Assembly (NCBI RefSeq): GCF_047663525.1
Contig: NC_092619.1
Location: 4,629,441-4,693,440, forward strand
From: Anas platyrhynchos
Lineage: Eukaryota
Length of the DNA stretch: 64,000 bases
Direction: 5' to 3'
The notes under the pieces were generated by a model. The model was not told the DNA's origin. It made no database searches and saw only the letters and a program-made list of their open reading frames with translations. The position numbers and the translations under genes were made by a program. Below are positions 3,731 through 36,130 of this stretch, piece by piece; positions within the stretch are counted from its first letter, which is position 1, and every line of letters starts with the position of its first letter.

Positions 3731-3830
3731 CGGATGCTCCAAACCATTGCAGGGCTTGGATGGAGATCACATTCTAGTAAACCTGCTCAAAATGTCCATA
3801 CAGGCAAACTTGGAGCTGGCTTTAGCTTCG
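3731..3830 (+). CDS. ACADM: ACADM exon 2 (RMLQTIAGLGWRSHSSKPAQNVHTGKLGAGFSF-)
   Basis: Acceptor ttctcttcag; donor GTAGGT at 3831. Matches the ORF-track frame for 3653..3850. Similar to human presequence and N-terminal region, ending ...GLGFSFE. Confidence 0.85.
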
Positions 3831-4114
3831 GTAGGTATCACATTCTTTGAAAGGAGTGCAGCAACTAAGGACAAATTGCAGAGTTAGTTTAAAATAAAAA
3901 ACACTGTATTGCAGTTCAGTATGAAGAGAAAGTTGAATTTTTTTGGTTACTAGAGAGGCCCAGGAAGTGGTGGTTTAGATTGTCTTGAGAGGAATGACAC
4001 TACTCTTCTTTGTCTTGAGAGGAATGACATTACTCTTCTTTTCCCCTACTCTGACAACTGGCAAAATTAAAGCCAATGTAGAATTTGTGACTTCTTTTTT
4101 CTTTTTTATAATAG

Positions 4115-4212
4115 AACTTACTGATGAACAGAAAGAGTTTCAAGCTACTGCTCGTAAATTTGCTCTGGAGGAAATTATTCCTGTTGCTGCACAATATGAT
4201 AAAACTGGAGAG
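4115..4212 (+). CDS. ACADM: ACADM exon 3 ([33 protein letters not shown])
   Basis: Acceptor ...ataatag; donor GTAAAT at 4213. Near-identical to human [33 protein letters not shown]. Confidence 0.92.
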
Positions 4213-4320
4213 GTAAATCTATCATACAGTAGGGGAAAATTAGATTTTTATATTACCCTGCATGAAATTTAAAATGCTGGCTGTGATTAATCAGAAGGTG
4301 ATTTTCCTCATTTATTTCAG

Positions 4321-4390
4321 TATCCTCTTCCACTCATAAAACGGGCTTGGGAACTTGGTCTTATAAATTCACACATACCAGAAAGCTGCG
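4321..4390 (+). CDS. ACADM: ACADM exon 4 ([23 protein letters not shown]-)
   Basis: Acceptor tttatttcag; donor GTAAGT at 4391. Human counterpart is [24 protein letters not shown]. Confidence 0.92.
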
Positions 4391-5581
4391 GTAAGTAAAT
4401 ATTTTTAATCTGTAAAATAAAACTAAGAAAAGGATTTGGAGGTGTTTATATGTGTAATTAGGGATTCTGTATAAAATAAACAGTTGCATATTTGAATAAT
4501 TAAGTTTAACCTTTTAATTTCCTGTTTTATTCATTATGTAGTCTGAGTCTTCCATCTTCAAAGGCTATCATGGAAGTGGAAGGGGTTCCTAAAAAGGATA
4601 AAGACAGCAAAAGATACAGAACAGCTTCTGTATGAGAAATAACTAAAACGTCAGTGTCATGAAGAGTGTGAAAAGGGATTGATAGCTCATCATCCCTTTC
4701 CATACAACTAGAAGGCATCAGTGAAGTCAGCAGATGGCAGGTTCTGAGTAAATTAAAGGAGGCCCCTGAGCACTTTTACAAGACAAAGCTGTGGCATTTC
4801 TCATCACGGTACCAAGAGAAACTCGTGGCAGAGTTGCTCTGTCCCTGGCATTCCTGCTCCCAGCCAGCCTACCCCATTCTCCAGCCAGGTCGTTCCTTGG
4901 TCACATCTGCTGAACAGTTAAAATCTCTATATCCCCTTCATTTTATGCAGTGTGTAGTTAATTTGTGAAACTCATAGCTGCTGCATGATATTGATGCTAA
5001 AATATGTACCTATGTTAAAAAGAGATGAGTGCAAATTCACTGAAGGGGAAGTCTGTCAAGGGTTAGCATTAACAAGGATACCAAGAGTACTTCAGGGTGA
5101 GGGAGACACCTAGAGGATGGTGAATGTATTTTGAATAAATGATGTATTGTTACTGTATTTCGAAGCACTTCCCAAAGTCGGTTTCTGTCAGAAATAGTCA
5201 GCCAACCAATCTAGTAACCTAAAATGAATAACTCGGTATTCATAGGAGCTATGGTAGCTCAGGAGCCTTTGTGGTCACTTCTCTGCTTCCTAAGAACTCT
5301 AAAGGACATTCTTAAATGTAAAGTAGTCAAACAGTTGTTGCCATTCTGTGTAACGTGCCCCATATCAATCGTGCAACCTTGGAGCAGTCAAATGTAGTTT
5401 TCCAATCATCTCTTACCATTCTGACAAAACTTTATTTAAAAAGTTGGTGTGGGATGTCTGATCAAACGCAGTGCACAATCAAGTGTATGCGGGGCAGTAT
5501 GTTTTTGATAGTTAATTTATGTAAATTGCTAGTATGTCCCACTTTAAAATCATTTTAGTAAATTAAATATTTCAACTGTAG

Positions 5582-5682
5582 GTGGTCTTGGCCTTGGCAG
5601 TTTTGAAGCGTGCCTTATTACGGAAGAGTTAGCTTATGGATGCACAGGGGTTCAAACTGCCATTGAAGCAAATTCCCTAGGG
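5582..5682 (+). CDS. ACADM: ACADM exon 5 ([33 protein letters not shown])
   Basis: Acceptor ...caactgtag; donor GTAAGT at 5683. Length 101 nt. Confidence 0.92.
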
Positions 5683-5768
5683 GTAAGTTCTGTCATTTCT
5701 TACCTCCTTTAAACTGAAGTCTGTGCGTTATAAAAAAGCAGATTAATAGTATAAATATTTTCTTTCAG

Positions 5769-5849
5769 CAAATGCCAGTAATCATTGCAGGAAATGAGCA
5801 GCAACAGAAAAAATACTTGGGAAGAATGACAGAAGAACCCATGATGTGT
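5769..5849 (+). CDS. ACADM: ACADM exon 6 ([27 protein letters not shown])
   Basis: Acceptor tctttcag; donor GTAAGT at 5850. Length 81 nt. Confidence 0.92.
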
Positions 5850-6087
5850 GTAAGTATAACTTATACACTGTAGAATGTTCCTAACCCACATTCATCGGTA
5901 TTAGTCATTTTTTGGAAGAAAGCAGTGGTATCTACTTAAAATTTAGCCTATTTTTGCTTGTAAATACACTGTGTCATTTATTCAAAGTCAAGGAATAGTA
6001 AATTTGATGCAAACAGTGAGAAAATAGAAGTTATTACCTGGAAAACCATCCTAATCACTTACAAAAAAAAAAAATTTATTTCCCTTT

Positions 6088-6488
6088 CAGGAGGTTGTTT
6101 AGCTGGGGTCATTTAGCTTGGAGAAGAGAAGGCTCAGGGGAGACCTTATTGTACTTTACAATTGCCTTAAAGGAGGTTGTAGTGAGGTGGGGATTGGGCA
6201 CTTCTCCCAAGCACCAAGTGATAAGACAGGGAAGATGACTTCAAGTTGCACCAGGGGACGTTTAGGTTGGACTTAGGAGAAATTTCTTTACTGAAAAGGT
6301 TGTGTGGCATAAGAATAGGCTGCCCAGGGAAGTAGTTGAGTCACCATCCCAGAAGGTCTTCAAGAAATGTGTAGATACAGAATTTAGCATGGTTTAGCTG
6401 TGGACTTCAGTACTAGGTTAAAGGCTGGACCAGATGTCCTTAGAGGTCTTTTCCTACTTGAACAATTACAAGCTTCTGTGATTCTAAG
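6088..6488 (+). mobile_element. CR1 3' fragment in ACADM intron 6
   Basis: ...[12 protein letters not shown]...[13 protein letters not shown]...[10 protein letters not shown].. ; ends cttctgtgattctaag. Confidence 0.8.
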
Positions 6489-6744
6489 AAGAGGTGTGGG
6501 AGTTTAAAAGAGATATGACATGAGCAGTACTTGTTACAGAGAAAGAAAGAGTCATGTGCAATGCATTACAACCTGAATAACTAAGCCCCATAAAATGAAG
6601 AACACAGTAGGTATAAAATGTTACACTGTACTCTTATTTGCAAATTTTAAAGATCCTCAGCTTTTACATCAGTTTGTGAAGTATGAGGAATTGATGACTT
6701 AAGAGTTACAAAATGTTTCTGTTTATCATGTTTATCTGGTGTAC

Positions 6745-7310
6745 AAAAGGTTCAACATGAGTCAGCAGTCCATGCTTGCAGCCCAAAAGGCCAAATACAT
6801 CCTGGGCTGCAACAAAAGAGGTGTGAGCAGCAGGTTGAGCGAGGTGATTGTCCCCCTCTGCTCTACCCTTGTCAGACTCCACCTCGAGTACTGCATACAG
6901 GTTTGAGGCCCCCAAAACAGGAAAAATGTGGACCTGTTAGAAAGAGTCCAGAGGAGGGCCACAAAGATGATCAGAGAGCTGGACCACCTCTCCTGTGAGG
7001 AGAGGCTGAGAGAGCTGGGGATGTTCAGCCTGGAGAAGAGAAGGCTCCCTCATTGTGGCTTGTGTATTGAAATACTGAAAGGGTTCTTCTAAAAAGGCTG
7101 GAGAGAGACTCTTTGCTCACTCAGATAATACAGGATGAGGAGTGATGTTTTAAACTAAAAGAGGGGATATTTAGGTTAGAGGTTAGGATAAAATTCTTCA
7201 CTCAAAGGGTGAAGAAAACCTGATCTAGTGAGTGGCATCCCTGCCTGTGGCAGGAGGGTTGCAATTAGATGGTCCTTAAGGTCCCTTCCAGCCCAAACCA
7301 TTCTATGATC
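6745..7310 (+). mobile_element. CR1 3' fragment (ORF2 C-terminus plus 3' UTR) in ACADM intron 6
   Basis: [48 protein letters not shown]...[34 protein letters not shown] ; ends ...ggtcccttccagcccaaaccattctatgatc. Confidence 0.85.
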
Positions 7311-7512
7311 ATTAAAAATTATTTAAAATATGCATTTATTAGGAAAATTAACCCATATTTGCTTTGACAGTTGTTGCGTTTTGGTGGTGGTAGGGTATTT
7401 TGTATAATATTTTAGGGTTTACTATGTGGTTTTGGTGCACATAGTCTGCAATAATATGGTTCCTAAAGAAAGAACTTTTTTCCTCAATATTTTATATTTT
7501 ATTTTTTTCTAG

Positions 7513-7656
<144 letters not shown>

Positions 7657-8858
7657 TGACTCATCCTACATTTCCTATTATTCTGTTCTATACTGTTTTT
7701 TTTTTTCCCCAAAGTTAGATATTAGTGTTTCTTTAAAGTTCTGTTGTAAATCCAAGTCTTCATTATGTTTCACCCCAATACAATTTTGCATCTGTGATTA
7801 GTGTATCAGCATAAGTATAAGACTCTCAGGGCTGTGCAAAGCTTAAAAAGGAAATTAAGTGATGATATGGCAACTATACATTCAAGAATACCTCTTAAAC
7901 CTTGATGCTACCAAACAAAATAATTTTGCTTTTTCTTCAAGGGAGGACAGCAGGAGTGTGATTTAATTTGCAAAATACTCAGGAAGCCCATATTACCAGC
8001 TACTTTACTTTGAAGGTGCAGTGATCAAGATCACATGCTATTGATTCTGTTCAAAACATCTCTCACTTTTAGTGAAGCTAGAAACACTCTTGGATTGTGG
8101 TGTTACATTTTATTTTCATAAGGGAAGACATTTTCTAACAGTCAAAGAATCCAGATATTGCTGTGGTGGTGTGTCTGTGGAGCATGCTTGACAATATAGA
8201 CCTCTTTTCATCATGTCTCACATAATACCATACTCATCCCCAACACATAAATTGTCTTAATTTAAGTGAAAAAGCTGTGTGCATTCATTCATAAAGCTGA
8301 ATTTTCTAATTATTTATTTCCTTGTTCAAGGCAGAACTATCAAAGAGAATGTACCAGCTACATGTATCTTTTGACATTACCGAACACCATGAATGTGATT
8401 TACAGCTGTTTAATTTCTAATTGAAATACTTATTTACAACTTAGAAGAATAACATTAAGATCTTAGAAATCAGGTGATAACATTTTCTGTGCAACACTGT
8501 ATCTCCTAAGAATTCATTTTTAAATATGTGATGTGACAGGTTTTTACCTGTTCATGAAACTTTTTTACTGTTCATGAAACTGATAATACCATAAAGACTT
8601 AAAGTAAGTGGAAAAGGTGGAGAATCTTTGCATGTTTATATTAAGTAATTTTATTAAATCTTGAATGTTGCAGTAAGAGATGCAGTGACACTTCTCTCCG
8701 TTGCACACTGTCGGTTTATTTCTGTAAGGGGCAAGAAGAATGGATTGTTAATTTTCTGATAGATTTATTACATGCTAGAGACACTAAATATATAGATATA
8801 CATACACATTGTTAATTGTGAGGATAAACTGAGTTTCCACCACTTTGTTTTACACTAG

Positions 8859-8967
8859 GTACTTCTTGCTTGCTCGTACCGATCCAGATCCAAAAGTTCC
8901 TGCAAGCAAAGCTTTCACTGGATTCATTGTGGAGGCAGATAGCCCTGGCATCCAAATTGGAAGAAAG
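8859..8967 (+). CDS. ACADM: ACADM exon 8 ([37 protein letters not shown])
   Basis: Acceptor ttttacactag; donor GTAAAG at 8968. Length 109 nt. Confidence 0.9.
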
Positions 8968-9768
8968 GTAAAGAAAGTATCTCTTACTTGACAAACCAGG
9001 GGTTATTATTTGTTTCTAAATCAAATCACAACAAATTGCAATTAAAGAAAACATGTTACACAACTGAACGTTTTCACATTGTCATCTTTTCATTTTCACA
9101 ACATAAACTATTCATAAGACATAATTTTACTCAGTCAGATAAAGAATTATTCAGAGTGGATTAAAGGAAAATGACTTTGAATAGCTGCAAAAAAATCTTT
9201 TGAGAACCATTTTATTGATCAATGCCAGTAGATGAGAAATATGCCATAAAAAATAAGGTGGACGGTTTTAACCATAATTACACAGTGAGCTTTAATTTTA
9301 GCTACTGCTTAAGGAAGGTTCTCGAGGTTCTGGTGCAAATTAAATAGGGGAAAAAAAGGGAAGGAATCTGAAAACTTGAAAACTCCATTTTATTTTTTTG
9401 TGCATGTGTTTCTGTTACGGTTATTTTTTTCTACTGCCTGCATACTAGTTTCTTTACTTTTTCCTTTCCCACCTCAAATGATAACAGTTGAACTTGAGAA
9501 AGACCACGTGAGTGATTGCAGCTACAGAATCAATTTTATATAGGCGTAAGATAAACTGCCCAGCTTAGACAAATAAAGGGCATGCTGGTCTGTAAATGCA
9601 GAACTACTATTTGTCACGTATATGGTAATTCTTAGATGAAATTGAAGTGTGTGGGAGGAGCTGGAGGGGAGAAGCTTACCTTATGCTTTGAGTAAACTAA
9701 AGCAAGATGATGTGTTGTACCTTGGAAAAATCAAGTTAGTTGGCACCTCCGTAAATTTCTCTTTTCAG

Positions 9769-9909
9769 GAAATGAATATGGGTCAACGCTGCTCAGATAC
9801 AAGAGGTATTGTCTTTGAAGATGTGAGAGTCCCGAAAGAAAACGTATTAATAGCTGAGGGAGCTGGCTTTAAAATCGCAATGGGAGCTTTTGATAAGACC
9901 AGACCACCT
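9769..9909 (+). CDS. ACADM: ACADM exon 9 ([47 protein letters not shown])
   Basis: Acceptor tctcttttcag; donor GTAAGT at 9910. Length 141 nt. Confidence 0.92.
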
Positions 9910-9986
9910 GTAAGTATCAAAAATAATTTATTTATAAAATGTAATAGGAATTTTTTTGTTTTTATTCTGTGCTGTATTTAATTCAG

Positions 9987-10082
9987 GTAGCAGCTGGTGC
10001 TGTTGGGTTAGCAAAAAGAGCACTCGATGAAGCTACTAAATACGCTTTGGAGAGAAAAACCTTTGGGAAAGTGATTGCTGAA
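9987..10082 (+). CDS. ACADM: ACADM exon 10 ([32 protein letters not shown])
   Basis: Acceptor tttaattcag; donor GTAAGT at 10083. Length 96 nt. Confidence 0.92.
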
Positions 10083-10723
10083 GTAAGTTAATGACATTTT
10101 TATTCATACATATTCACTTATATAAGCTATGTTTTCACATCAGTACAGTAGATGTACTACTAGTGAATTTTCAGGTTTGTTCCTTGATTTTTAGGGTATG
10201 AGTTACTGTATCTCTGCCATTGCTTAGGTTCTCAAATACGTAGGTCAGTGACATCAAAATAAATCTAGCCATGCAGTTACTCCAGGAATTCTTCTAAACT
10301 CTCAAGACATACGTAAGTTCTTCAATACTAAAAAATAGTGATTTTCACGCAAGGTATAAGCTTCTCTGAGCTATATGAAACGATACACAGTATTAATAAA
10401 AACTTAGAATATGTTACCAACCACGCCATTTACCAGTTTTAAAGAAATTTAAATAAACAGCTAGCTAAATAAGATGTCATAAATACTGAAACACAACTTC
10501 ATAATTCAGTACTTAATCCCTGTGACTAAATGAATTTTAGAATGAAAACCTTAAAAGTCTAATTCAACACAGAATTATGACAGCTTGATCCATATTCTGT
10601 AGAACTCATCTTGTACAATTTACGTTGTTGAAGGTATTAGTGTATAAAAAAGATTATATTCTTTTTGGATGTCACAGAATCTTAAGCAGGCAATGTTAAT
10701 CTAGTGTATTTCATCATTCATAG

Positions 10724-11008
<285 letters not shown>

Positions 11009-14000
11009 TAAATTTTATATAGAAATACCTAATGGCTACTTATTTCAAATCTTGATATACACATATGACATAATTTTTTAGAATGACAGTAAGTATCCTT
11101 CAATTTAAAAAAAGGGAAACTCAAATTGGGCAAATTCTTGCATACTATGCACTAGATCAATAGCTTAACCTACATGTAACAAATAAATTTAATGGTGTGT
11201 TTTTTTCCGTATATGGTAACTCTGAAATTCTTAGGCTCTTCTTCATTTGGAATCTTCTTCATTTTGGAATCAAACACTGTAGAAAACACTACCCAAAGTA
11301 CCAATACTTCCTCTGGTATTCTATAAGTAGGTGTAGTTTATGTATGATGCTGTTCTTGAAAACCTTCGGTGCTGGAAATTCTCTGATTTTCCATATGTAT
11401 CATAGACTGGTGCCTGCCTATAGTTTAGCTTTTCCTTCAGCCTGATACCTAGTTCAAATAACAGTTATTGCAAATTATCTCCTTTTACTCCTCAGATCCA
11501 AAGACAGTATGCAGAACAACTGATTGGTACTGACAGTTTAGGAGCTTCTCACGTTTCTCTTATTTTAGTCTAGAAGAGAACACTACAGCGGCTTCTTCAC
11601 CTCTTTCCTCATCAGTCATGCTGAATGACTTTTTTAGTTTTATTTTTTCCTTTTCTGTTTCCAGTCTCTTCATTGCTTCTGGCTGTACTCTAAACCTTAT
11701 GTTTGAAACTTTGGTAGCATAACCCAGGCAGAATATTTCAGTTGATATATCACCAGCATTGAGTGTCATGGACTATATCGTGGTCTTGCATATGTTGTAT
11801 TAACAGAATTATGACACAATCTGGAATGATTGGCCTGTTTTTAACAACAAACCAAACCTATACTTACTCATGTTTAGCCTGTAGTCACCCATAATTCCCA
11901 GGTTTTTCTGCATTATTATTGCTGTGAAATTATTCCATGTTATGTCATAATTCTTGTCTTGGGATATATTATGCTGCAGTTCTTCATTCAGCAAGAATGT
12001 TTTAATTATGCTCAGCAGAACCAGTAATCTTTTCACCTCTTTCTGATAGTAATAGTGGCTAGGTAAAACTTATCAGAATAGGTATCAAGAAATGCATGTG
12101 AACCATAATCTGAAAGGTTAGTTAGTTATAACAGTTGTCGTTCTTAAGATCCTATTAGTTAGCATTTCTCTTATAGCTGACATTAAAATGAAAACTATGA
12201 TTCTCCCTAGCCAATATTTTGGTTTTCTCTGTTTAAGGAAAGACAGCTACTACTTTGGAGTCTAAAGGTCCTTAGTACTAATTGCAGTCCTGCAAGCAAG
12301 ATGAATGAGTAATACAATTTTACTTTGGGCATTTTTTCTGTCAGGTTCTATGTTTTTCTAGAGAAAGATGTGAGGGTTGGAAGCTTATTTAAAAGTTAAG
12401 ATTAATTTTACAGAATTCTAGTTATTCAGATCTTCTATTATACTGATCCATCACAGGTGCATGTCAAGGTAGACTTTTCTAATTGTTCAGTCTAATAAGA
12501 TTTAGTATTAATTTTTGTTGTTTTTCTGCTTCCCTTCTTCCCTTAAAAGAATACAAGGAAGGATTTTGTCTTTAGAATAATTTTGCCCATGTCTCTTGAT
12601 TATGCTTTACTATATTACGGCCCAATTCCACATGGTACATGCTTTTGGCCATGGGTTTCGTGTATAAAACTTCATTTTCCACTTGTTCTTTTCTTCCATA
12701 TATTTGATATTTCTCAGTATTACACAGTTCTACTACTTCCCTTCAGTTGAAGGTGGTGCTTGAAGCTGCTTCCCTTGCTTATAAGCCAAAACCTCTTTTG
12801 CATTTATTTAAGCAGACTGAGAGTTTTGATGTCTTTACACTTGAGTTCCATGGCTGTCTTCATCAGCAAGTAATTTAGTACAATAGGAGGAGATTAGCAG
12901 ATTGCAGGAATAGCTACTGAATGCCCTCCAGCTACACTATATCCAGTTTGGAGAGGCTAAGTTCACAGCATGCCCGTTTGGTTACTTGGACTGAATGTCC
13001 CCATTATGTGTGTAATTGTAAAGGCTTGTAAGTTGTAAACAAATCTGTAAATTGTTATAGGCCTAGACAATTTTGGCTTCATTAGGATTTGGACCGTATG
13101 TGGTGTATAGAGGGAGTAGAGTTTCCAGTTAAGTTTGCTCTAAAAAGCACCTACTTTCACCAAACTAAATCTGCTCTATAACCTGGATCATTGTAGGGTA
13201 AGCAGCAGCAGTCCGATGATTCACTTTGAGAATGAAAAGTTTCCTCTGAAGCAAAAAACTAATGTGACTGCAGGTTATAGTGGTTCTATTTCCAAAAAGC
13301 TTTGTAAGGTTCTTGAGAATACTGTCCCTATTTTATGACTGCAGAAAGTGAATTTACCTGAATTTGAGCAACTCGTCAAACCAAGTTCTGGCGGACCTGG
13401 GAACTGAAACACTTGAATCCCTAAGCTGTGTTACTTCCACCCTCAAATCCTGTTGCAGTATATCTGTGGAGCATAGAGTCTTCTTACTGCATTAGAGCTT
13501 CATATATACAGTGTTTTGCATCTGTGTCTTTCCTGCCATCAAGCCATGTAAAACGGGGATAATGCAGAATGTTTCTAGAAGACGATGCAAGAATGTAAGG
13601 TTAAAGAACAGGAAAAAAGGGATACTGTATTGGAGAGAGTACTAGTTAGCAAGAAGAAATGGAAGTAAATGAATCAAAGCAAATGCTTGATGTGACGTTG
13701 AAAGGCTAGACAACAAAAGTACAACACTCAGCACAAGTCATCTTCTCTTCACCCATTGTTTTAAAACCTAGTTTGTAAAACCTAAACTATGTATTTTCTT
13801 CCTCAGATAACACGTTTTCTTGATCGTTTTTGGCTCCCTATGTCTATTTGCCTGAGAAAATTATTGAATTTAGATGAGAGGATATGAGACTGTCTCTCAG
13901 TATCTTGTGTATGATTTATTTTATTTAGCCAAATGTAGCTACTTAGTCACATTGGAATTTTTCAGTTCTATTTTTCTTGGATTTAACTTTCCAATCCACG

Positions 14001-14099
14001 CTGTAATCTAGTATGCTAAGGAGGTTTAAAAGTGTAGAAAGATCAATTTAAACCTTTTAAAAAATGATCATCTAACATTGTTGCAATTCTTCTTTTCAG

Positions 14100-14171
14100 A
14101 TTTATGAGGGAACTGCTCAGATTCAAAGGATGATCATAGCTCGTGAACATATTAGCAAATTTAAGGCTTAA
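14100..14171 (+). CDS. ACADM: ACADM exon 12, terminal coding part ([23 protein letters not shown])
   Basis: Acceptor ttcttttcag; TAA stop at 14169-14171. Total CDS is 1272 nt, or 423 aa, against 421 aa in human. Confidence 0.92.
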
Positions 14172-14624
14172 AGAAATGTGTGTGGCACTATGGTAGTATT
14201 CTGTGTTCTCATGGAAGAGGATTTTAGTGTGTTTCTCAATACAACGGAAAATTTGTGGAAAAAAAGTCCTTTTCCTTAAAAATCTTTTTATTGAATACGT
14301 TATTAAACACTACTTCTTCCCATCCACTCCCTCTGAATTCCAAAGTGGTTGATTGTTGTCTTTCCCCACTTAATCATTTTCACTCAAATATTTAGCCTTT
14401 GATGGGGGAAGGGAAAAAACCTTCCCTATAAAATTTATAGATTTATTTGATTTAAAAAGTTACCAAAATTCAGATTTTTTTTTTTATTTGTTTTGGTCAG
14501 TGAAGGCATTCAGCATGTGGAAATTCAGCATGAGGATTTAAATACGGAGAGTTTCTGTATTGTTTATAATGATACAGATTTGTTCCGTCTCTTTTATCAT
14601 TGGCATTTGGATGGATATCAAGTT

Positions 14625-14630
14625 AATAAA
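14625..14630 (+). other. ACADM: candidate ACADM polyadenylation signal AATAAA (alternatives: ATTAAA at 14302-14307, AATAAA at 14725-14730)
   Basis: Canonical hexamers in the AT-rich 3' UTR downstream of the stop. Which one is used cannot be told from sequence alone. Confidence 0.35.
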
Positions 14631-17619
14631 TCTCAGGGAAATAGTTACTTACAAATGCTATTCTAATTCCTCAGGAATACCATGTTGCAGCAGATTGTCT
14701 CTAGGTCACCTAGAGCTAGCTGAAAATAAATACGCTAACATGTTGGTTTTGTTGGCCTTTAGAAATTCATATTTAAAAAAAAAAAAAAAGAATATTAATT
14801 TCTGAACCATTCGAAAGCATGTATTATCATGAAATAGAACACACTGCACTATTATTTTTCTCAAACAGAGACAGGATTACTATTTGTAGTTTGTCTATAT
14901 TTTATGTGTGTCCCTGAAGCAATATGAACAAAACCTACTTCTTGTTTTCAAAAGACACAGCATAATAGGGCTTATTTTCAATTTCTTAACCACGTTATTC
15001 ACCTAAATCCAGCACTGAAAAAAATGTCATTGAAAGCCTTTATCTCTGTTCTTCAAAGAAACCTGTTGTGTTCATGAAGAAAATACTTGTGCCTTCTCCT
15101 GTGCAAGACGTCTGCGTTACAGTTGGGTGTTATGGATAGCTTTTGGTAAAAATAATTATGTGGTTTTGTTATAGCATAAATAAGAATGATTGTTCAATTT
15201 TTAACTTTTTAATTTTAACCAATGCCACATAAAATAACCTCTAGGAAACATTGCCATATTTTCATTTATAATGTATCTATTCTAAATTTGAACATTACTC
15301 CAAAAATCCAAGTACAAAAAGGGCAAGAAACGAGAACCTCACAACACAATGTTTTTTCACTGTAAAGTTAGATGATCAAAATGTTATTTCTGACAGCCAT
15401 TGCTGCATTCAAATAAAAACTCATTTTAAACAGAGAGGCGTGGTGGTTTTTATTCATTTTGTTTGCCACATCATTTAAATTGTATTTTGCATAAGTTGTC
15501 CAGCTTCTGAAACAGACAAATAGCTGCACCTCAGTTCCTCCTGTGCTACTGCCCACGACAGCTGCGTGGCTGTTGCGGTTCAGCAGTGTGAAGGCTTTGC
15601 CTGCATGAAGACTGTTCTGAGGACTAAGATCCAACCCAGCAGTGACGGTATGCGGCTTGAAGGAAAGCAGCCTCTCTGACTGGTGCACTTGCTTAAGTAA
15701 ATGTTCAGTCACGATGATTCACTTCAAGTCAAAGTGAAACTTTTCCTTAAGAATGACTTATGTGATCATTTTTATTTCAGATTCAATGTATTTAAAGGTA
15801 TATTCCTTTCCATCAGTGTATGCACTTAACTGTTTGCAGCAGGAACAGCCAAGGAAGAGGAATTTTTGAGAATTTTGTGTTTTGTTTTGGAATTTGGCTA
15901 GGCTCTGCTGGGCAGTGCTGGCAGAACGCGTGTTCCCTGGATGTCTTGGAAAAATTACTCAGCCACATCTGGAGTGCCATATCCAGCTCTGGGCTCCCCA
16001 GCATAAGAGAGAGATGGAGCTACAGGAGACAGTCAAAGGGCCGCTAAATGACAGACAGATGGGACAGCTGCACTGAAGGAACAGATGACAGATTCTGGTA
16101 TTTGTCACATCACGTCACAGTGAGAGTGGTGGGATAAATGCCAACACAGGTCAGATGTTTGTTTTCTGTATAGTCAGTGCTGTCCAGGTAAATTGCAGAA
16201 AAGCAATTTCTAATCAATGGTTTTGATGATTGCAAATTTAAAAAACAAGTACTCTTGGGTAGCAATAACAAAAACTATTTCAGTATGTTACTTAAAAACA
16301 AACACTAATGGACAGACCTTCAGGAGTTAGTCCTATCACTTTCTAAAATAAATAAATCAAATTATAGAATGATGTGCTTTAAAGTTCATAATGGTGACTT
16401 TGCACTCCTGATAAATTTTATAATACTCTGGCTACAGGTTCTCCTGGAACTTCAAATGATTTCCTTTGGATTTTTAAAATTCTCTGCACATTCAGGTGAA
16501 AGCCCAGAAAATGAGTACTGTTTTAATTTTTATATATCTATGCATATATGCATGTGTCTATATAGATGCACATATTACTGTATTTTATAATATTTAATTA
16601 CTTGGTATTTATATAAGCTATGCATTTATGTAATATGTATGATTCAAGTGCAGTACATCTACATTTTAGTACTATACAAAGGAAATATGGTAGGAACCAG
16701 TTCTTGTTCTCAGATCTGCTTTTACGTTAAAAATAAAATGCTCATCAGACTGGTATCATTTTTTCTTTTCTTTTTTCTTTTTTTTTTTATCTGGCTTGTG
16801 GCTTTTTCTTCCCCCTGAGAAAAAGGATTTAATCTCAGTCTTATTTTTTCACCATAGTGACTAGCATTATAAATTTAACTTATAACCATCTATTATGCCT
16901 TTTTTTCCTGTTCCTTCTCATGCAAACCATGGTGGAAAACAATACTCAAAAGCTTCTAAAAAATTGCTTGATTACTTGCACCTCCAGTCCCATCTCATGG
17001 AAGAAATGTTTAAATGGTGTTACAAAAAATAAGATAGTATCCTGGTTTCGGAAGAAAGTATATAGGAATTAAGGTATTGGATTTGAAACCTTTAGGGCAG
17101 AAGAATATTGCTTTCTTGGATCCCTGATGAGTGTTGACATGTATTATCTTATCTAAAGTAGATGTTTATCACCGGTTAAGCTCTAGAATTACTCAGAGAC
17201 CCAGGAAGCTGAAGTTTCTTTAGGTTCCAACCTTTGAGCTTCTCAGAGCTGTCCAGTTGAATTCCTTTCCCAAATTCTAATCCAGCACTAGGAGGCAGGG
17301 GTACACTGTAAGGTCGTTTACATTGATGTATTAGAGATGTGTAGTTCTTGGATTAATGACTGATGGTACTAGGAAATACTTCTACGATAACTGAATATAG
17401 CTTTAGAGACACGAAGTTGAAAAGTGTTAGCAAATGCTAATGATCGTAAAGTCTCGTGGTAAATTTAAGCAGCTTGTCTTGTGCACGTTCTTAGTCCAAA
17501 AACACCATTTAGTTTCCTGTATGTATAAAGGGCCTTGTCACATTGAGAGAGGGAGTTAGGAGAATACAATAAATCACTAACCTTTTAGAAAAGAATTTAC
17601 TAACTTTTAGAAAAGGGGG

Positions 17620-18170
17620 GAACTGGGAGAGGAAGCTAGGTGAATCTTATCAAGTAGAGATAAAGTGATAGCATGAAACTAGGATGCTCAAATTAATTAA
17701 AGCAAGAAGCCTTGGGCCCCAAGGTCAGTCTCCTAATAAGAGTGTGAGCCTATCTTAAGAAACTGGTCCTGCGGATGGACAAGAGCCAAGGAGCAACTGA
17801 GTCTGCACAGAGACAAGAGGTCAACGAGCGGTGACGAGGAAGAGTCATCAATCTTCATCCCCATGACCCCCAATGACCACCACCAGAATACACTGCGCAA
17901 GCGCAGATGGGAGGAGTTTATGGAAATGACTCCTTGGAACTAATTTTAATATGGAGCGGGACAGGTTATGAATATGTATAGGCGTATTGTGAAACTTCAT
18001 GCATATGTAACACTTTACTGCATAAAACCAAGACAAGTTGCTGCGTCAGGTGCACACAACTTTGGCAGGACTACCCCCTGTGCTGCCCAGCGCTGAATAA
18101 ACATACCTACTTTACAATCTTACTGATTGTGGAGTCCGTTTTCCGCAAGTCAACATCTTCCAGGTAAGTG
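17620..18170. mobile_element. LTR-like repeat copy A (preceded by polypurine tract aaaaggggggaa; contains TATA-like and AATAAA signals)
   Basis: About 75% identical to the block at 21440-21690 over at least 200 bp, including gctgcccagcgctgaataaacatacc versus cacccagtgctgcaataaacatacc. No gag, pol or env ORFs lie between the copies. Confidence 0.3.
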
Positions 18171-21100
18171 TACCAGAATAATTGCAGAATTGCAAAATCC
18201 AACAATCAAAATCATGTTCTTGAATCAGTTTGATTAAAACCTGCTTTAGCTCAGGGTTTTAGGCTGGGTGTAGCTTTTATGGTTTAGCTTCCAGGTTTAA
18301 GTGTACCAAAGAAAATCTGCAGCTCTAGTCAGTCTTGCTTTAAAAACAACAATTGTTTCTACTTCTGCCCAGATACCAGAGAGAACCCAAATATTTAAGG
18401 CTGATCAAGAATTCCAGTATTTTGAGAATCTACTGCCCTGCAATTATCAAGTGGGGCACTACAGATAAATGTTAAAATTGTATAGCTATTTACAGATTAC
18501 CACTAGTTGAACTGATTTGCATATATATAGCTATACATAAACTGAAAATGATTTGTTCACTGTTACGTGTAGTAAAGATCCAGATCGCTTGAGCTGTAGT
18601 GTGCACTTTGTGAATGAGGAGATAATCCGTCAGCTGGAAAAGAAAACAGTACAGAGGCATCTTTTTGGTTAATTTTTATCATTGTGTAAAACCTAGTATT
18701 CTAGCATTTTGTTCTGTATTTTCAATAGAGATTTAAAGGTGGTTTTGTTGATGCTGACAAAACTAATCTTTATTTCGTTCCCTGCAATTTACATTCTCGG
18801 AGAAATACATACAAGATTTTCATGTGCTGTACTTCTAGCAAGCCCTAAATCACTTGCACAAGCACAGTCTTCTCATTCGTATTGCTGAAGCTTGTGTATT
18901 TAATGAGGGTGATAGAATACAAAGGAACTTGATGTACCTTAGTTGCATTTCTGATTGCAGGGGAAAGTAAATGCTACTGATGTGGGGAAGGCCATATAAT
19001 TAATTTTGTCCTGTATGAAGGAATTTATTGTAGGCAGAATTCTGAATTGTGTGCAAGTCAGGTGAGTTTTTCTTTACATGGAGATGCTTTAAATAAGCAG
19101 TTACTGCATACTACCTCTAAATGTTCCTTTCCAACTTCTACAAGTAATACCATTTAATCATCAACTATTCTCATTATAATAGTAAAAATCACGCTCTAGG
19201 CTGTGAGACCCCAGCCCGACCAGGAATCCTTCCACTCTGAAGATGTGCAGAATGATTCTGTCATGTTAGCTTTATAATCATGTAAGCAGTCAGAGGCTGG
19301 GGGATTGTAAAAACATAAAGGTATTGATAAGAGATTGTATAAAGGGTGACGCAGAAAATCCGTAGGTGTGCCAGCCTTGTGGAAAACCACGTGGTACTAA
19401 ACAATAACAATATCTCAACCTAGTGTGTCGATTGGCTTATTGTATGTTGGGTAATGAATCCAAACTTTTTATCAGACAACAGAAGCAGCCCCCAGGGTAT
19501 TCATAGTCCCTTGCTCCACAAACAAGAAGTGCAGAAGCAGTTTTACCATTCACACCTCTATTTGCTCATGGGCTCTTCCTCATTCCAGAGAATTATCTGA
19601 TAATTGTGTTTGCTCAAGTTTAGCCCAGTACAGTCAGCAAGATGACTCAGGGAGGAGGCAGTATGGCATTGACACTCAAAAAAGGTATGTGCAGTCATTT
19701 TCAAATTTGGAAAGCTAAGAAACAAGTTTTCACAGAAAAAATACACAAGAGATGGTCACTATTCTACAAGTCATAGACTTCAGTCTGGTATTCTCAGACA
19801 GCTCTCTTGCTGCTTCCTTCATAATATGAGACCATCACATTTCCAAAATACTCTTTTCTGCTACTTAGAATACTTTGCTCCAGTTATATTGCAAAGAGCT
19901 CTTACCCTTGGCAACAACTAGCCTCATAGTTGCCAAAGCTCTAATTGTATATAATTTGCATTATAAGAAACAGTTACTAATTTTGCTCAAGTTGCCTTTT
20001 GCCACTAAGGAGAATTAGGAGTACTTTCACAGGTGAAGGAAGGGGAAATGAAAAAAAAAAAAAAAAAAAAAATGGGATATGCCTTTTTGCATGTATCCCA
20101 AAATGAAGAGTCAGGATTCATATGCTGGAACTTCAATTACCTTTCAAGAAACTGGGGATCCAGAAGCTGGATGATTAGGTTTTAAGTAGCTGAGGGTACT
20201 TACTCCAATAAAAGACAAGTCTGTGGGAAAAAAAAAAAAAAAAATGCATTTTCTTCATGAAGAGAATACCACGAAATTGGGAATCTTAATACTTTCCAGA
20301 AATCTTGTGGTAAGGATTTGGTCCTAAATCTTGAGAAATTATAGGATCCTGAGACAGTAAGTCAACTCCAAGAACTACAGGAGAGGATGTGAATGTTATC
20401 ACCTGTCATTAAGAAGCAAATACCCCAACCGATGTGGTGACAGCAGCAGCAAGAGGAGAGGACGCACAAGCAGGCAGAACTGTCTGTCAAAGTCAAGTGC
20501 AGGAAGAAAGGGCAGAGCTGGAACCTGTAAAGACAGGGTGATAGAGGACAGATGATGTAATAAGGGAGAGGATGAGTTGAAAACAGTCAAGGAAGTGGAG
20601 AGCATCAAGAAAGGAGTTATTTCATGCAGTGGAAAGAAATTGCCAACAGGACAGAAAGCAATCTTTCCATTTTGGAAAGAACCTTTTAGCAAAGCGGTGC
20701 TCCCCAGCCCACTATTTGGCCATCATCCTGCAAAACAGTATTATATTTTTTGGATTTTCACACCTCCTTAGGCATAATGTACTGATTCTTCACTGTTTTT
20801 CATTCCTGCATAGAGTCATTTTTAAACATATAAAGTGTTGGAGAATATCAGAACTCCAAGCGCGTAATAACACATGTAGGATTTCAGAGCTTTATTAATT
20901 TAATAAGAAGCTTTATTAACAGTAATCAGAGGGAAAGAATGGCAGCATCTCTCTCTTGTGTTCTCTACCCGATTGCAGAGACCCGATTTACACACTGTTT
21001 CAAAGAAAGGAAAGAGGTAAGGAAAAAACATTATAACATTAACAAAGTCAAGTGTGCTTTCCTGGGAAGGATGGATGCCAGAATATCATTTAGATCTTAA

Positions 21101-21439
21101 GAAGAAGGAAGTACCCATTCCTGGAAGGGGTGGACTCCTTAAGCATCTTGTTAACTGCCACAATTGACGCCCTGGTTAGACATGTAGGAGTGTCAAACCC
21201 AGTATTATTAGCTCAGAAAACAGGAATAATCAAACTGCTAGGTTTTGGTTGAAAGCAATGTTCTTTTTGCTAGGTGAACTTCTTCATCAGGCATCTTATA
21301 TCTTAAATATTGGTGTTTTGTTGTTGTTTTTGTTTTATTTTGTTTTCCCACCACACAGGGACTCCATTTTTAGGACACATTTCAATTCTGAAATGTTCAT
21401 TTAGAAGCCAGCCTGGAGTTTTTGTGTCACAGGCACTGC

Positions 21440-21690
21440 AGAGCCTGCAGGGTGTTAAACGAGGTGCAGAGTGTGCCTCCTGCAGCCACCGCAGCCCACG
21501 CCAGCACATATCCCAGTGACAGTGTCCCAGAGGGGGTGAAGTGAGATTAATATGTATATATTCCATTAATATAAGTACCCTAGCAGTAACCCTTGGTGTG
21601 CAAGCTAGGAGGAGCAATCCCTCTTGCACCCAGTGCTGCAATAAACATACCGGCTTTATAACTCTCCTCAAGTTGTAAAGTTTGATTTCT
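21440..21690. mobile_element. LTR-like repeat copy B (truncated by or abutting the CR1 at 21690)
   Basis: Same evidence as for copy A. Confidence 0.3.
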
Positions 21691-22575
21691 GTACCTCACA
21701 GCTGATACAACAGAAGTAAGGGAAACCCTCCAAAGGGACCTGGGAAAAAGTTTGGGAAGTGGCCCCTCATAAACATAATGAGGTTCAACAAGTCCAAGTG
21801 CAAGGTGCTACACCTGGGTCAGGGCAGTCCGAGACATAAGGACAGACTGGGAGAAGAACTCATTGAGAGCAGCCCTGCAGAGAAGGACTTGAGGGTTCTG
21901 GTGGATGGAAAGCCTGCCATGAGCCAGCAGTTTGTGCTTGCAGCCCAGAAGGCCAACTGCATCCTGGGCTGCATCAACAGAAGAATGGGCAGCAGGTGGA
22001 GGGAGGGGATTGTCCCCCTCTGCTCCACCCTTGGGAGGCCACATAGCATCATTAAGGTTGGAAAAGTACACACTTGAAGTATTGCATCCATATCCAGCAA
22101 CACCAACACAAAAAGGATGTTGATCTGTTAGAGTAGGTCCAGAAGAGGGCCACAAAGATGATCAAGGGGCTTCTTCTCCTATGAAGACAGGCTGAGAGAG
22201 CAGGGGTTGTTCAGCCTGGAGAAGGCTCTAGGGAGACCTCATTGCAGCCTTTCAATACTCAAAGGGGACTGATGAATTAATGGAGAGCAACTTTTTACAT
22301 GAACAAATAATGATAGTACACTGGCGGATGGTTTTAAACTAAAAGAGAGGAGATTTAGATATTAGGAGGAAATTCTTCATTCAGAGGGTAGTGAGGTACT
22401 GGGACAGGTTGTGCAGAGAAGTGGATGCCCCATCCCTGGAGATGTTCAAAGACCAAGTTGGACAAGGCCCTGGTCAACCTGATCTAATGGGTGGCATCCC
22501 TGCCCATGGCAGGTGGATTGGAACTGGATGATCTTTAAGGTTCCTTCCAACCCAAGGCATTCTATGTTCCCTCAA
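21690..22575 (+). mobile_element. CR1 3' portion (RT C-terminus to 3' terminus)
   Basis: [74 protein letters not shown]... Ends ...gatctttaaggttccttccaacccaaggcattctatg. Confidence 0.85.
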
Positions 22576-23900: not shown

Positions 23901-24257
23901 ATGCCAAGGCAATATAGACCTATCTCTACAAGATACCTTAAAGGAGGCTGTAGTGAGGTGGGGGTTGGCCTGTTCTCCCACGTGCCTGGTGACAGGACGA
24001 GGGGGAATGGGCTTAAGTTGCACCAGGGGAGTTTTAGGTTGGATCTTAGGAAGAACTTCTTTACCGAAAGGGTTGTGAGGCACTGGAACAGGCTGCCCAG
24101 GGAAGTGGTGGAGTCACCATCCCTGGAAGTCTTTAAAAAACGTTTAGATGTAGAGCTTAGGGATATGGTTTAGTGGGGACTGTTAGCGTTAGGTCAGAGG
24201 TTGGACTCGATGATCTTGAGGTCTCTTCCAACCTAGAAATTCTGTGATTCTGTAAGA
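23901..24257 (+). mobile_element. CR1 3' fragment (ORF2 C-terminus plus 3' UTR)
   Basis: ORF ...[56 protein letters not shown]. 3' end reads ggttggactcgatgatcttgaggtctcttccaacctagaaattctgtgattctgt. Confidence 0.85.
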
Positions 24258-25424: not shown

Positions 25425-25545
25425 AATGGGCCCCGCCCCCTCCCTTCAGGCCCCACCCCCTTCCCTTCAGGCACCGCCCCCCTCCATTCAGGCCCCGCCC
25501 CCCTCCCTTCAGGCCCCGCCCCCCTCCCTCCAGGCCCCGCCCCCC
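25425..25545. repeat. 22-bp tandem repeat (CCCCGCCCCCCTCCCTTCAGG), about 5.5 copies, in MVP intron 14; G-rich on the transcribed strand
   Basis: Near-perfect copies are visible. The transcribed (-) strand reads CCTGAAGGGAGGGGGGCGGGG per unit. Confidence 0.8.
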
Positions 25546-26104: not shown

Positions 26105-26300
26105 CCAAGGGATGCGAGATGCATCCCTTTGTTAGGCATTGGAATGGGCTGCACAGGGAAGCGGTGGAGTCACCATCCCTGGAGGTCTTTAAAAGACGTT
26201 TAGATGTAGAGCTCAGGGATATGGTTTAGTGGGGACTGTTAGTGTTAGGTCAGGGGTTGGACTCGATGATCTTGAGGTCTCTTCCAATCTAGACAATTCT
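26105..26300 (+). mobile_element. CR1 3' terminal fragment abutting the MVP exon 13 acceptor
   Basis: ...[30 protein letters not shown] ; ggttggactcgatgatcttgaggtctcttccaatctaga. Near-identical to the copy at 23901-24257. Confidence 0.8.
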
Positions 26301-26735
26301 GTTATGTATGGGACACTGGGGACAGGGTGGGACACAGGCTACGCTGGAGATATGGGGGAAACTGGGGGTGTGGGGAGGCAATGAGGATATGGGGCATGTT
26401 GGGAACATGGGGAAACAGGGCATGCTGAGGGTATGTGGCATGTAGGGGACGTGAAAACACATGGAAGGAAGTTTTGGGACATGGGGGATATGGAGGACAT
26501 TTGAGGACATGAGGGATGTGGGGAAGACAGACGGGGATATGGCAACACAGGGCATATGGAGAGCCAAAAGTAAACATTTGGGGACATGGAGGGACTTTTG
26601 GAGAATCAAGGGAGACCTGTCATTGGCCTCCTGGGAGTTAGTGGTGATCCTAACAGCAAACTGTGAGGTGCACTGGAGAAAGACATGGGACATGAGGACT
26701 TGGTGGGACATGAGGTGACATGGGGAAACATGGGG
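26300..26735. repeat. GGGGACATGG-type minisatellite in MVP intron 12
   Basis: Repeated gggacatgg / ggatatgg units. Confidence 0.6.
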
Positions 26736-26737
26736 AC

Positions 26738-26949
26738 CTAGCAGCAGCCTCCTGGGAGTTGGTGGCAATCTCGATAGCCAGCTGGACACTGCGCTGCAGG
26801 GCATCGCGGGTGCGCTGGTCCACAGGCTCCACACTCTGGATGTCGACGCTTGTCACCACCAGCCCATTGGGGGCAAAGCGGAGCTGCTCCCGCAAACGCC
26901 CACTCTCATCGAAGCCAAACACAGCTGAGCAGATGAGACGATTTGAGTT
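26738..26949 (-). CDS. MVP: MVP exon 12 ([70 protein letters not shown]-)
   Basis: Acceptor ...tgtccccag; donor GTCCCC after GCTGCTGCTAG. Matches human NSARIIRTAVFGFETSE...[35 protein letters not shown]. Confidence 0.85.
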
Positions 26950-27411
26950 CTGGGGACATTGGGGACATCAGCGTCACTTGGGGATGTTGAGGCCGTTGGG
27001 GCAGTGGGGACACAGGGGAACATACAGGGCTTCATCGATGCCAAACAGAGCCAAGCAGAACAGCCTGTTTGAGTTCTTGGGGCATTGGGAAATTCCTGAT
27101 GTCCCCAGTGACTCTTGGGCACATCAGAGGCTCAGGGGGCCAACAGAGACCCAGGGTAATATGCAGGAGCCACAAGGTTATGCCGAGTGACACAGAAGGG
27201 GCACATGTAATGTTGGGGGGGATGTTGAATCTGAGTGGACCATGGTCACACATGCAACATAGGAAGACATGTGGGGGCATAGGTGACACAGGATGGTGCA
27301 CCAATGACCCAGAGTACCATGGCGGGAGGAGGGGGTGGAGGCACTGGTGATGCAGGTGAAAGTGGGGGTACTTGGGCTTGACCAAGGGAAAATACGTATG
27401 ACCAACAAGAC

Positions 27412-27550
27412 CTTGTGGAAGTCATCAAAGGTGACGGCAGCAACAGCACCACGCACACGGGAGGCCAGGGCCTTGCAGGCATCACCCACAAAGTCAGGGA
27501 CACTGAAGAGGCGCCCCAGATCTTTCGGTTCTTCTGGTACCTCGAAGTGC
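27412..27550 (-). CDS. MVP: MVP exon 11 ([46 protein letters not shown])
   Basis: Acceptor ttccttgcag; donor GTCTTG. Matches human [48 protein letters not shown]. Confidence 0.85.
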
Positions 27551-35226: not shown

Positions 35227-36130
35227 CTACGGGAGGGAGGGACAACAGTGGGTGGTGGGACACCAAAAGCTGGCCCCGCCAGGCCTTGTCACCTGTGTGG
35301 GCAAGGCGACAGGGTTATGGGACTTCAGACTCGTCCCATACGGTCCTTGTTATGTGCGGGTGAAGGGAAGACAGGGATATAGTGGATTGCAGCAGGGCTG
35401 GACCCTCTAGAGAGTCCTTGTCACCCACAGGTGCAGGGAAAAAGGGGACACAGTGGGCTCAGGGCAGGGGGAATGGGACCCTCAAACATATCCCCAAGGA
35501 GCCTCGTCACCTGCGGGTGCAGGGGGCACAGGGGGGTGACGGTACCCCACACCTATCCTGGAAGGTCACTTGCCAGCTTGGGTGCAAGAGAATAGCGACA
35601 CAGAACCCCCAAACCCATCCTGAAAGGTCCCTAACACCTGTCTGTGCCCAGAGCACGTAACAGGACCCCCAAATCAGGTCTTTGTTACCTATCAGTACAG
35701 CAGGAATGGGGTCATGGTGGGCTGGTGGGGACAGGATACCCGGAGGGTCCACATCACCCCCTGAGGCAGGGGGAACAAAGACAGCATAGCTGAGGGGGAC
35801 AGTACCCCTCACACAGTCCTCAACACCCATGGGTGCAGGGGGCATGGCAACATGGTGGGTTGGAAGGTCCCTCAGAGGGTTCTCATCACCCATGGGTGCA
35901 ATGGGGACAGTGCCATGATGGATCAGGGGGATAAGACCCTTCACCCACCCTGGAGGATCCTTGTCACACCCACGGTTGCAGGAGAATAGGTACACGGACC
36001 CCCAAACCCAGTCCAGAGGGACCTCCAGAGGCACCACAGGCATGGCTACACTACTGGCTCAGGTCCTGGAGAGTCCCTGTCATCTGCAGGGGCAGGGGAA
36101 ACCACGGGCAAGGGTCACGATGCCAGGTAC
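35227..36130. repeat. minisatellite of about 12 units of 65-80 bp filling MVP intron 5; unit derived from the exon-6 acceptor junction
   Basis: Units such as gtccttgtcacccacaggtgcagggaaaaaggggacacagtgggctcagg are homologous to ...ggtccgtacggctcgcaggtgcagggctttc|tacgggagggagggacaacagtgggtgg, which spans the exon 6 / intron 5 boundary at 35190-35260. Confidence 0.7.

Follow-up and report, generated by a model that had tools for sequence, protein, structure and literature searches.

Minisatellite and VNTR arrays evolve by unequal exchange and gene conversion, and tandem duplication of exons has reportedly given rise to mutually exclusive homologous exons, a route that Kondrashov and Koonin in 2001 and Letunic, Copley and Bork in 2002 are said to have described. 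A closer system is exon stuttering, one form of the sequence stuttering reported for chicken dot-chromosome genes (Hron et al., Genome Biol Evol 2026, PMC12954441). Here imperfect tandem copies of a lateral exon part, each with the splice site, extend along the neighbouring intron. In over 90% of cases the source begins no more than 1 nt from the exon border, the copied exon part measures 20-187 bp, with a median of 36, and the copy number ranges from 1 to 44; a single copy was considered "possibly an early stage or another process" (PMC12954441). The events are described as evolutionarily recent and polymorphic within chickens, and their association with dot microchromosomes, which hold 190 of the 236 stuttering introns of chicken, is strong but not absolute (PMC12954441). 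Replication stress at GC-rich/G4-forming DNA, or meiotic gene conversion in repeats, has been proposed as the mechanism, and such copies make potential alternatively spliced transcripts (PMC12954441). MVP does not appear in the text-searchable supplements of that work, including its figure of 115 chicken genes.

MVP lies on the minus strand of the window (the whole 64-kb stretch of DNA that was analysed), where tblastn places 16 coding exons between 39459 and about 24545. (The tblastn query was human MVP, and it served only for exon location.) The gene is MVP: its translated exons 10-13 match the Pfam families MVP_shoulder (1e-50) and Vault_3. The exon and intron numbers of the initial annotation hold, provided that the count of coding exons begins at the ATG exon. 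Coding exon 11 (27412..27549, minus strand) carries the donor that opens intron 11 (27411-26950, minus strand), and the authentic coding exon 12 (26738..26949, minus strand) has 212 nt, belongs to the shoulder domain and ends in SQEAAAR.

The initial annotation described a repeat of about 80% identity between 27027-27095 and 26911-26965, and took it for a duplicate of the 5' end and acceptor of exon 12 lying in intron 11 in the same orientation. Local alignment of 27000-27130 with 26880-27000 bears this out: it pairs 27032-27089 with 26906-26963 in a single ungapped block of 58 nt, with 47/58 identities (81%), in direct orientation and with a start-to-start spacing of 126 nt, and a repeat search gives the identical pair. 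Together with the tblastn exon map, the alignment identifies the source (26903..26969, minus strand) as the real acceptor flank and the first ~47 nt of exon 12. The copied acceptor is at 27076/27075 and the real one at 26950/26949, again 126 nt apart. The copy is indeed upstream of the real acceptor, but the distance of 80 bp that had been given is not exact, since the copy ends 76 nt short of the real acceptor. This spacer (26950..27025, minus strand) is rich in (N)TGTCCCC.

The copy, here called psi5' (27026..27075, minus strand), is a pseudo-exon of 50 nt, bounded by an AG at 27077-27076 and a GT at 27025-27024; it runs from AACTCAAACAGG... to ...GATGAAGCCCT/GTATGT, a slash marking a boundary here and below. 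It is preceded by a copied acceptor flank (27076..27094, minus strand), cccaatgccccaag, which is homologous to the cccaatgtccccag before the real exon. On the minus strand the copy thus reads cccaatgccccaag/AACTCAAACAGGCTGTTCTGCTTGGCTCTGTTTGGCATCGATGAAGCCCT/GTATGTTCCCC and the real site cccaatgtccccag/AACTCAAATCGTCTCATCTGCTCAGCTGTGTTTGGCTTCGATGAGAGTGGGCG. The homology comprises 14 nt of acceptor flank and ~47 nt of exon start, and none is detectable between copy and source upstream of those 14 nt. At -3 the psi5' acceptor has A and the real exon 12 site C; the pyrimidine tract of psi5' is similar to the real one. As had been proposed, an exon-12-like peptide can be read from the copy, which translates to NSNRLFCLALFGIDEAL....

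The match stands well clear of the GC-rich background. Its alignment score is 61, whereas 1000 shuffled versions of the neighbouring segment score 14.8 +/- 2.3 (maximum 25). When exon 12 with its flank is aligned to the whole of intron 11, the score is again 61, and 500 shuffles give 18.3 +/- 2.4 (maximum 31). The shuffles kept mononucleotide content only, and the empirical control for background is a scan of the whole window with a profile HMM made from all the copies of three birds (those of the window and of the two other birds described below). On both strands of the 64-kb window this profile matches only 26969-26905 (E 6e-20) and 27094-27029 (E 2e-17), the third-best match having E = 0.27; self-BLAST of the 16-kb gene region gives the pair E = 5e-9. 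A third, more degenerate copy in intron 11 had been considered at 27235-27180, where MAFFT set a distal copy of another bird opposite; the profile search found nothing at this position, and the candidate was dropped. On the plus strand, antisense to MVP, a regex scan picks out a G-quadruplex-type motif (26998..27029) with four G runs and loops up to 12 nt that reaches across the breakpoint of the copy, and any role of this motif at the breakpoint is suggestive only. A 15-nt inverted repeat (26957-26971 and 27096-27110, 93% complementary) pairs the pyrimidine tract of the real acceptor with a segment just upstream of psi5' and could loop psi5' out of the pre-mRNA. This structure was rejected: the fold of 26930-27125 is ordinary (z = -1.6, with 12 of 200 shuffles as stable), and the inverted-repeat arm is absent from the metagenomic contig L001.

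Searching with the exon 12 protein (71 aa) returned no match above 97% identity and two bird entries only: L001, a JGI metagenome contig (sample 3300000035) with an exon 12 protein 97% identical, and L002, contig PTFB01002646.1 of the kiwi Apteryx rowi (GCA_003343035.1). A metagenome scan for further bird loci added a single bird contig, L003, which comes from another sample, was assembled independently, represents the same species as L001 and has the identical sequence. The kiwi gene model is the sole spliced bird MVP among the results of the protein searches. The cross-species look at intron 11 that the initial annotation suggested reveals copies of the same junction in both of the other birds. 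In L001 there are two, starting at 335 and 490, with the real exon at 648. In kiwi there are at least nine, within an intron 11 of 3.47 kb that is nearly all tandem repeats (595-2017 and 2209-3938 of L002). The first part of the kiwi intron is an array of a 21-nt unit in about 70 copies; the second consists of at least nine near-identical units of 142-187 nt and a 291-N gap, each unit reading tgtccccag/AACTCCAACCGGGTGATCTGCTCGGCCGTGTTCGGCTTCGACGAGGCCCC/gtgtccc and then a variable count of 9-nt (N)ATGTCCCC repeats. The last unit of this array is the real exon 12. Over 39-46 nt these copies agree with the kiwi exon at 95-100% of positions, kiwi-specific codons included. Beyond these birds, nhmmer was run on two contigs, L084 of the box turtle, where a gap of 100 N interrupts the intron, and L083, which is non-avian; each yields the real exon only. 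The loggerhead turtle protein P0121 could be assigned to no contig. A search with the exon 11 protein gave one more bird contig, L085 (ENA ERZ27279500 k141_300437), which holds part of exon 10, intron 10 and exon 11 of a bird MVP and was set aside as chimeric and unusable for intron 11; it has an Illumina adapter at 1-45 and unrelated sequence from about 650, inside exon 11.

The proposal that MVP exon-intron junctions have been duplicated locally extends to the other end of the same exon. In intron 12 a second pseudo-exon, psi3' (26617..26672, minus strand), is a 56-nt copy of the 3' end of exon 12 with its donor, reading ttctccag/TGCACC...ACTAACTCCCAGGAGGCCAATGACAG/gtctcc in outline and ttctccag/TGCACCTCACAGTTTGCTGTTAGGATCACCACTAACTCCCAGGAGGCCAATGACAG/gtctcc in full. 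Its alignment scores 40, compared with 18.5 +/- 2.1 (maximum 29) for shuffles, it is preceded by a good-looking acceptor (tctttctccag), and its inclusion would shift the reading frame. An orthologue of psi3' is present in L001 (about 941-1015) with the derived substitutions GCACCT, ACTAAC, GGCCA and GTCTC in common, and these common derived substitutions argue that psi3' is older than the split of the two birds.

The surrounding introns hold further repeats. GGGGAY/(N)TGTCCCC motifs are scattered through intron 11 of the window at 10.8 per kb, compared with 1.4 per kb window-wide. The real donors are far from consensus, exon 11 having AAG/gtcttg (27412/27411) and exon 12 TAG/gtcccc (26738/26737); the exon 12 donor is gtcccc in L001 also, gtcccg in kiwi and gtacgg in turtle, and the C-rich repeat motif stands right at the start of these bird introns. 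In intron 5 there are several degenerate units of about 40-50 nt (families D2-D4) at 35340-36115, which are probably the "intron 5 array" of the initial annotation. On the minus strand they read CCCTGCACC(T/C)G(T/C)GGGTGA and resemble the start of exon 6 (GCCCTGCACCTGCG; GCCCTGCACCTGCGAGCC), so that they may be another decayed exon-border stutter. At 25429-25545 a 21-nt tandem repeat, GGCCCCGCCCCCCTCCCTTCA (5.6 copies, 89% matches), begins, on the minus strand, 7 nt past the exon 14 donor and may be purely intronic stuttering. Two 177-nt segments (...gattggaagagacctcaagatcatcgagtccaacc...), one in intron 12 (26129-26305) and one downstream of MVP (24073-24248), are 92% identical in direct orientation and look like an interspersed avian repeat.

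All copies of the exon 12 start in the three bird lineages end at one breakpoint, to within about 2 nt, with the consensus GAYGAR/GCYYYGTRTG. The junctions read GATGAA GCCCTGTATG in the window, GATGAA GCTCCGTGTG and GATGAA GCCTCGTGTG in L001, and GACGAG GCCCCGTGTC in kiwi; at the same point the real exons read AGTGGGCG, GCCGGGCG and GGCGGCCG, respectively. Every copy has an Ala codon, GCC or GCT, after GAR (GCT in the distal L001 copy), as does only the L001 sequence among the real exons, the codon at this place being GGC in the kiwi exon and AGT in that of the window. We read this Ala codon as a fossil of the ancestral exon state, which would be evidence for one old duplication. Codons 3-4 are AAC xGG in the window copy, as in kiwi and turtle, and AAT CGT in the real exons of the window and L001. 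The sequence past the breakpoint resembles the generic intron motif CCCCGTGTCCCC. A single origin, as read from these data, rests on three bird lineages and one common breakpoint, in a sample that contains no crocodilian.

Relationships among the copies are mosaic. The window copy is 79% identical to its own exon, 77% to the distal L001 copy and 62% to the proximal one, whereas the spacer 3' of it is orthologous to the proximal spacer of L001 (80% identity). This pattern, with the copy nearer to its own exon and the distal copy and the spacer nearer to the proximal one, fits loss and gain of units through unequal exchange. The near-identity of the kiwi copies to the kiwi exon points in turn to homogenisation or recent re-expansion up to, but not across, the junction. 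Drawn as they are from short sequences, these readings of turnover and common origin should be taken as probable.

It has been possible to compare the locus with exon stuttering by the published procedure, which uses blastn-short and takes matches of >= 20 nt and >= 42.1 bits in the proximal intron (PMC12954441). With all 16 MVP exons of the window against all introns, no match reaches 20 nt and 42.1 bits; exon 12 scores 16 nt and 24.3 bits against intron 11, and 19 nt and 30.2 bits against intron 12. Under relaxed scoring, the two best matches in the gene are exon 12 to intron 11 and exon 12 to intron 12. The first of these spans exon positions 1-44, to which the alignment adds the 14 nt of flank, and the source is therefore at the exon border; its length, whether taken as the ~47 homologous nt or as the 50 nt from AG to GT, is within the range of 20-187 bp. 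The structure is that of stuttering as well: intron 11 holds one extra copy, oriented like its source and 126 nt upstream of it, and intron 12 holds a second case. The orthologous intron of kiwi passes the screen with nine matches of 62-92 bits. The window copy fails because it is too diverged, so that the failure is a limit of sensitivity and not a contradiction of the structural match. TRF finds no tandem array in intron 11 of the window, which does not show the heavy simple/tandem repeat cover of a host intron. Given the failed screen and the TRF result, the window does not have the appearance of a locus at which stuttering is active.

The splice signals of psi5' are not clearly inferior to those of the real sites beside it. 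Its donor, CCT/GTATGT, agrees with consensus at 6/9 positions, compared with 4/9 for the real donors of exons 11 and 12. Three routes of use were modelled: the psi5' acceptor with read-through into exon 12 meets a stop after 33 codons, inclusion as a 50-nt cassette shifts the frame and meets a stop inside exon 12, and an in-frame product, with an insertion of 18 residues, arises only from a weak donor, GTTCCC, 4 nt downstream. Between the window and L001, the copy is 56% identical to its positionally aligned counterpart, with 50% in the distal intron, 80% in the spacer and 87-90% in the exons; psi5' is thus not conserved above the intron background in this pair. One L001 copy is 48 nt long and the copies elsewhere 50 nt, and two of the kiwi copies have AT at the donor position where the others have GT. 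Acceptor position -3 is A in 3/3 copies of the window and L001, and C or T in the 12 readable real MVP acceptors. (A codon-level reading of the 11 differences between psi5' and its source was abandoned, since selection on the real exon is expected to give a synonymous bias that is uninformative on the copy.) Judged by its sequence, psi5' is most likely functionless and would normally be skipped, with splice signals compatible with occasional use.

Several other origins of psi5' have to be weighed against descent from an old stutter. Short C-rich intron motifs yield many weak repeats, and this is the sole ground for reading the similarity as an accident of GC-rich composition or an error of assembly; the idea is already refuted, given a score about 20 standard deviations above the shuffles for a pair that is unique in the 64-kb window. 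An assembly duplication would be near-identical, whereas 11/58 positions differ here, and homologous copies stand at the same place in other species, one of which is represented by two independent assemblies. A whole-exon tandem duplication, of which psi5' would be the remnant and which would once have provided mutually exclusive exons, is very improbable even though pieces of exon 12 flank the real exon, the 5' piece upstream and the 3' piece downstream. The kiwi units hold only the first 46-50 nt of the exon, the remaining ~160 nt being found in none, and the arrangement, with the full exon between a 5' piece and a 3' piece, is what two separate boundary duplications produce and not what duplication of the whole exon would leave. 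It is also unlikely that the copies arose independently and recently in each lineage, at a recurrent hotspot on the exon border. A breakpoint placed within about 2 nt in three lineages speaks against this, as do GCC/GCT after GAR even where the host exon has GGC (kiwi) or AGT (window), the AAC xGG of the window copy, shared with kiwi and turtle and not with the AAT CGT of the window and L001 exons, and the clear orthology of spacer and psi3' between the window and L001. What such independent events would explain is the published account of stuttering as recent and polymorphic within chickens, the near-identity of the kiwi copies to the kiwi exon, the greater likeness of the window copy to its own exon (79%) than to its positional counterpart in L001 (62%), and the resemblance of the sequence past the breakpoint to a generic intron motif.

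A functional role has likewise to be considered, in which psi5' would be a regulated alternative or "poison" exon, or a decoy acceptor, that produces NMD-targeted transcripts and so tunes MVP output. The AG acceptor and the usable GTATGT donor 50 nt apart, a spacing that recurs in kiwi, would suit such a role, and a frame shift with a premature stop on inclusion is typical of poison exons; copies do persist in three bird lineages, and potential alternatively spliced transcripts from copies of this kind have been noted (PMC12954441). Against such a role stand an identity of 56% to the positional counterpart beside 50% in the distal intron and 80% in the spacer, a length of 48 nt in one copy and 50 nt in others, AT for GT in two kiwi copies, A at -3 in all copies of both non-kiwi birds, and a copy number between 1 and at least 9 across birds. 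On this evidence from sequence comparison, regulated use of psi5' appears improbable. About equally doubtful is a combined scheme in which a stutter locus already present in the ancestor of kiwi and the other birds would have been kept exon-like by exchange or conversion, with low, copy-number-dependent decoy use, such that array length would tune MVP splicing.

Taken together, these comparisons favour, with a probability of roughly 80%, the reading of psi5' as a decayed relic, with a single extra copy, of exon stuttering at the boundary of intron 11 and exon 12, most likely functionless. In such a relic, a head-to-tail duplication would have placed the acceptor flank and the first ~47-50 nt of exon 12 in the intron, at a time that probably precedes the split of kiwi from the other two bird lineages. 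The likely route would be slippage during replication, or unequal exchange, between the C-rich (N)TGTCCCC motifs with which these introns are packed, and the mechanisms proposed for chicken (PMC12954441) seem to fit the local sequence here. Copy number would later have drifted, with the kiwi array growing and becoming homogenised with the real exon, and the arrays of the window and L001 shrinking and decaying. The copy in the window would usually be passed over in splicing, and transcripts that took it up would for the most part contain a premature stop.

MVP itself has 55-62% GC, and over some 20 kb downstream of it (2001-22000) the value falls sharply to 34-40%. An ORF at 56760-57617 encodes a LINE endonuclease (Pfam Exo_endo_phos), the only domain that Pfam recognises in ten flanking ORFs; those by the 5' end of MVP give nothing recognisable. 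MAZ, PPP4C and ALDOA are neighbours of MVP on human 16p11.2. All three are on chicken chr38 (supplement of PMC12954441). The AT-rich flank and the LINE ORF are atypical of chicken dot chromosomes, whose euchromatin has been described as poor in repeats and rich in GC. The GC3 of exon 12 is 0.70 in the window, 0.91 in L001, 1.0 in kiwi and 0.99 in turtle, and MVP appears to have shifted towards AT in the lineage of the window. It is a matter of speculation that MVP left an extreme GC-rich regime in this lineage, and that the stutter array then shrank and decayed.

By itself psi5' is an ordinary decaying duplicate. Its interest lies in the locus: MVP joins the list of genes with exon stuttering, which was described in 2026 and from chicken alone, and psi5' shows what becomes of a stutter locus after expansion stops, namely one copy, 81% identical, that the published BLAST screen misses. 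Since the published threshold misses such old copies, screens that depend on it undercount old events. The breakpoint common to kiwi and the two other birds suggests that an individual stutter locus can last, with turnover of its units, across a very long span of time. Such copies are also a trap for annotation, as in kiwi, where nine acceptors that mimic the real site, matching its last 7 intron and first ~39-46 exon bases, precede exon 12; given the 291-N gap, the true copy number of that array may exceed the nine that are readable.

The locus can thus be placed among the known systems. Like published exon stutters, psi5' is a lateral exon part with its splice site, in direct tandem within the adjacent intron, with its source at the exon border; the copy number varies (1, 2 and at least 9 in three birds, with 1-44 reported), and the introns hold C/G-rich repeats. 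Intron 11 of kiwi MVP, with a 21-nt intronic array and an exon-derived array of 142-187-nt units, is textbook exon stuttering. The window copy departs from it in being single, 19% diverged, below the BLAST threshold and without a tandem array, and one breakpoint in three lineages points to an old locus where the published emphasis is on recent, polymorphic events in chicken. Like the pseudoexons of DMD, ATM and PCCA, psi5' is bounded by AG and GT, looks like an exon and would break the frame if included; unlike classical pseudoexons, which come about by chance or from transposons, it is a paralogous copy of the start of the adjacent exon. With tandem exon duplication it has in common the local tandem copying of exon sequence within a gene, but only ~22% of the exon (47-50/212 nt) is copied, so that psi5' cannot substitute for exon 12; no full-length exon copy with both splice sites in the same phase is present, and the kiwi units confirm the short unit. 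Finally, a unit of 126-187 nt, a copy number that varies by lineage, homogenisation in kiwi and nested shorter repeats are features of a minisatellite or VNTR. What sets the MVP unit apart is that it spans a functional splice acceptor and coding sequence, and that the real exon closes the array.
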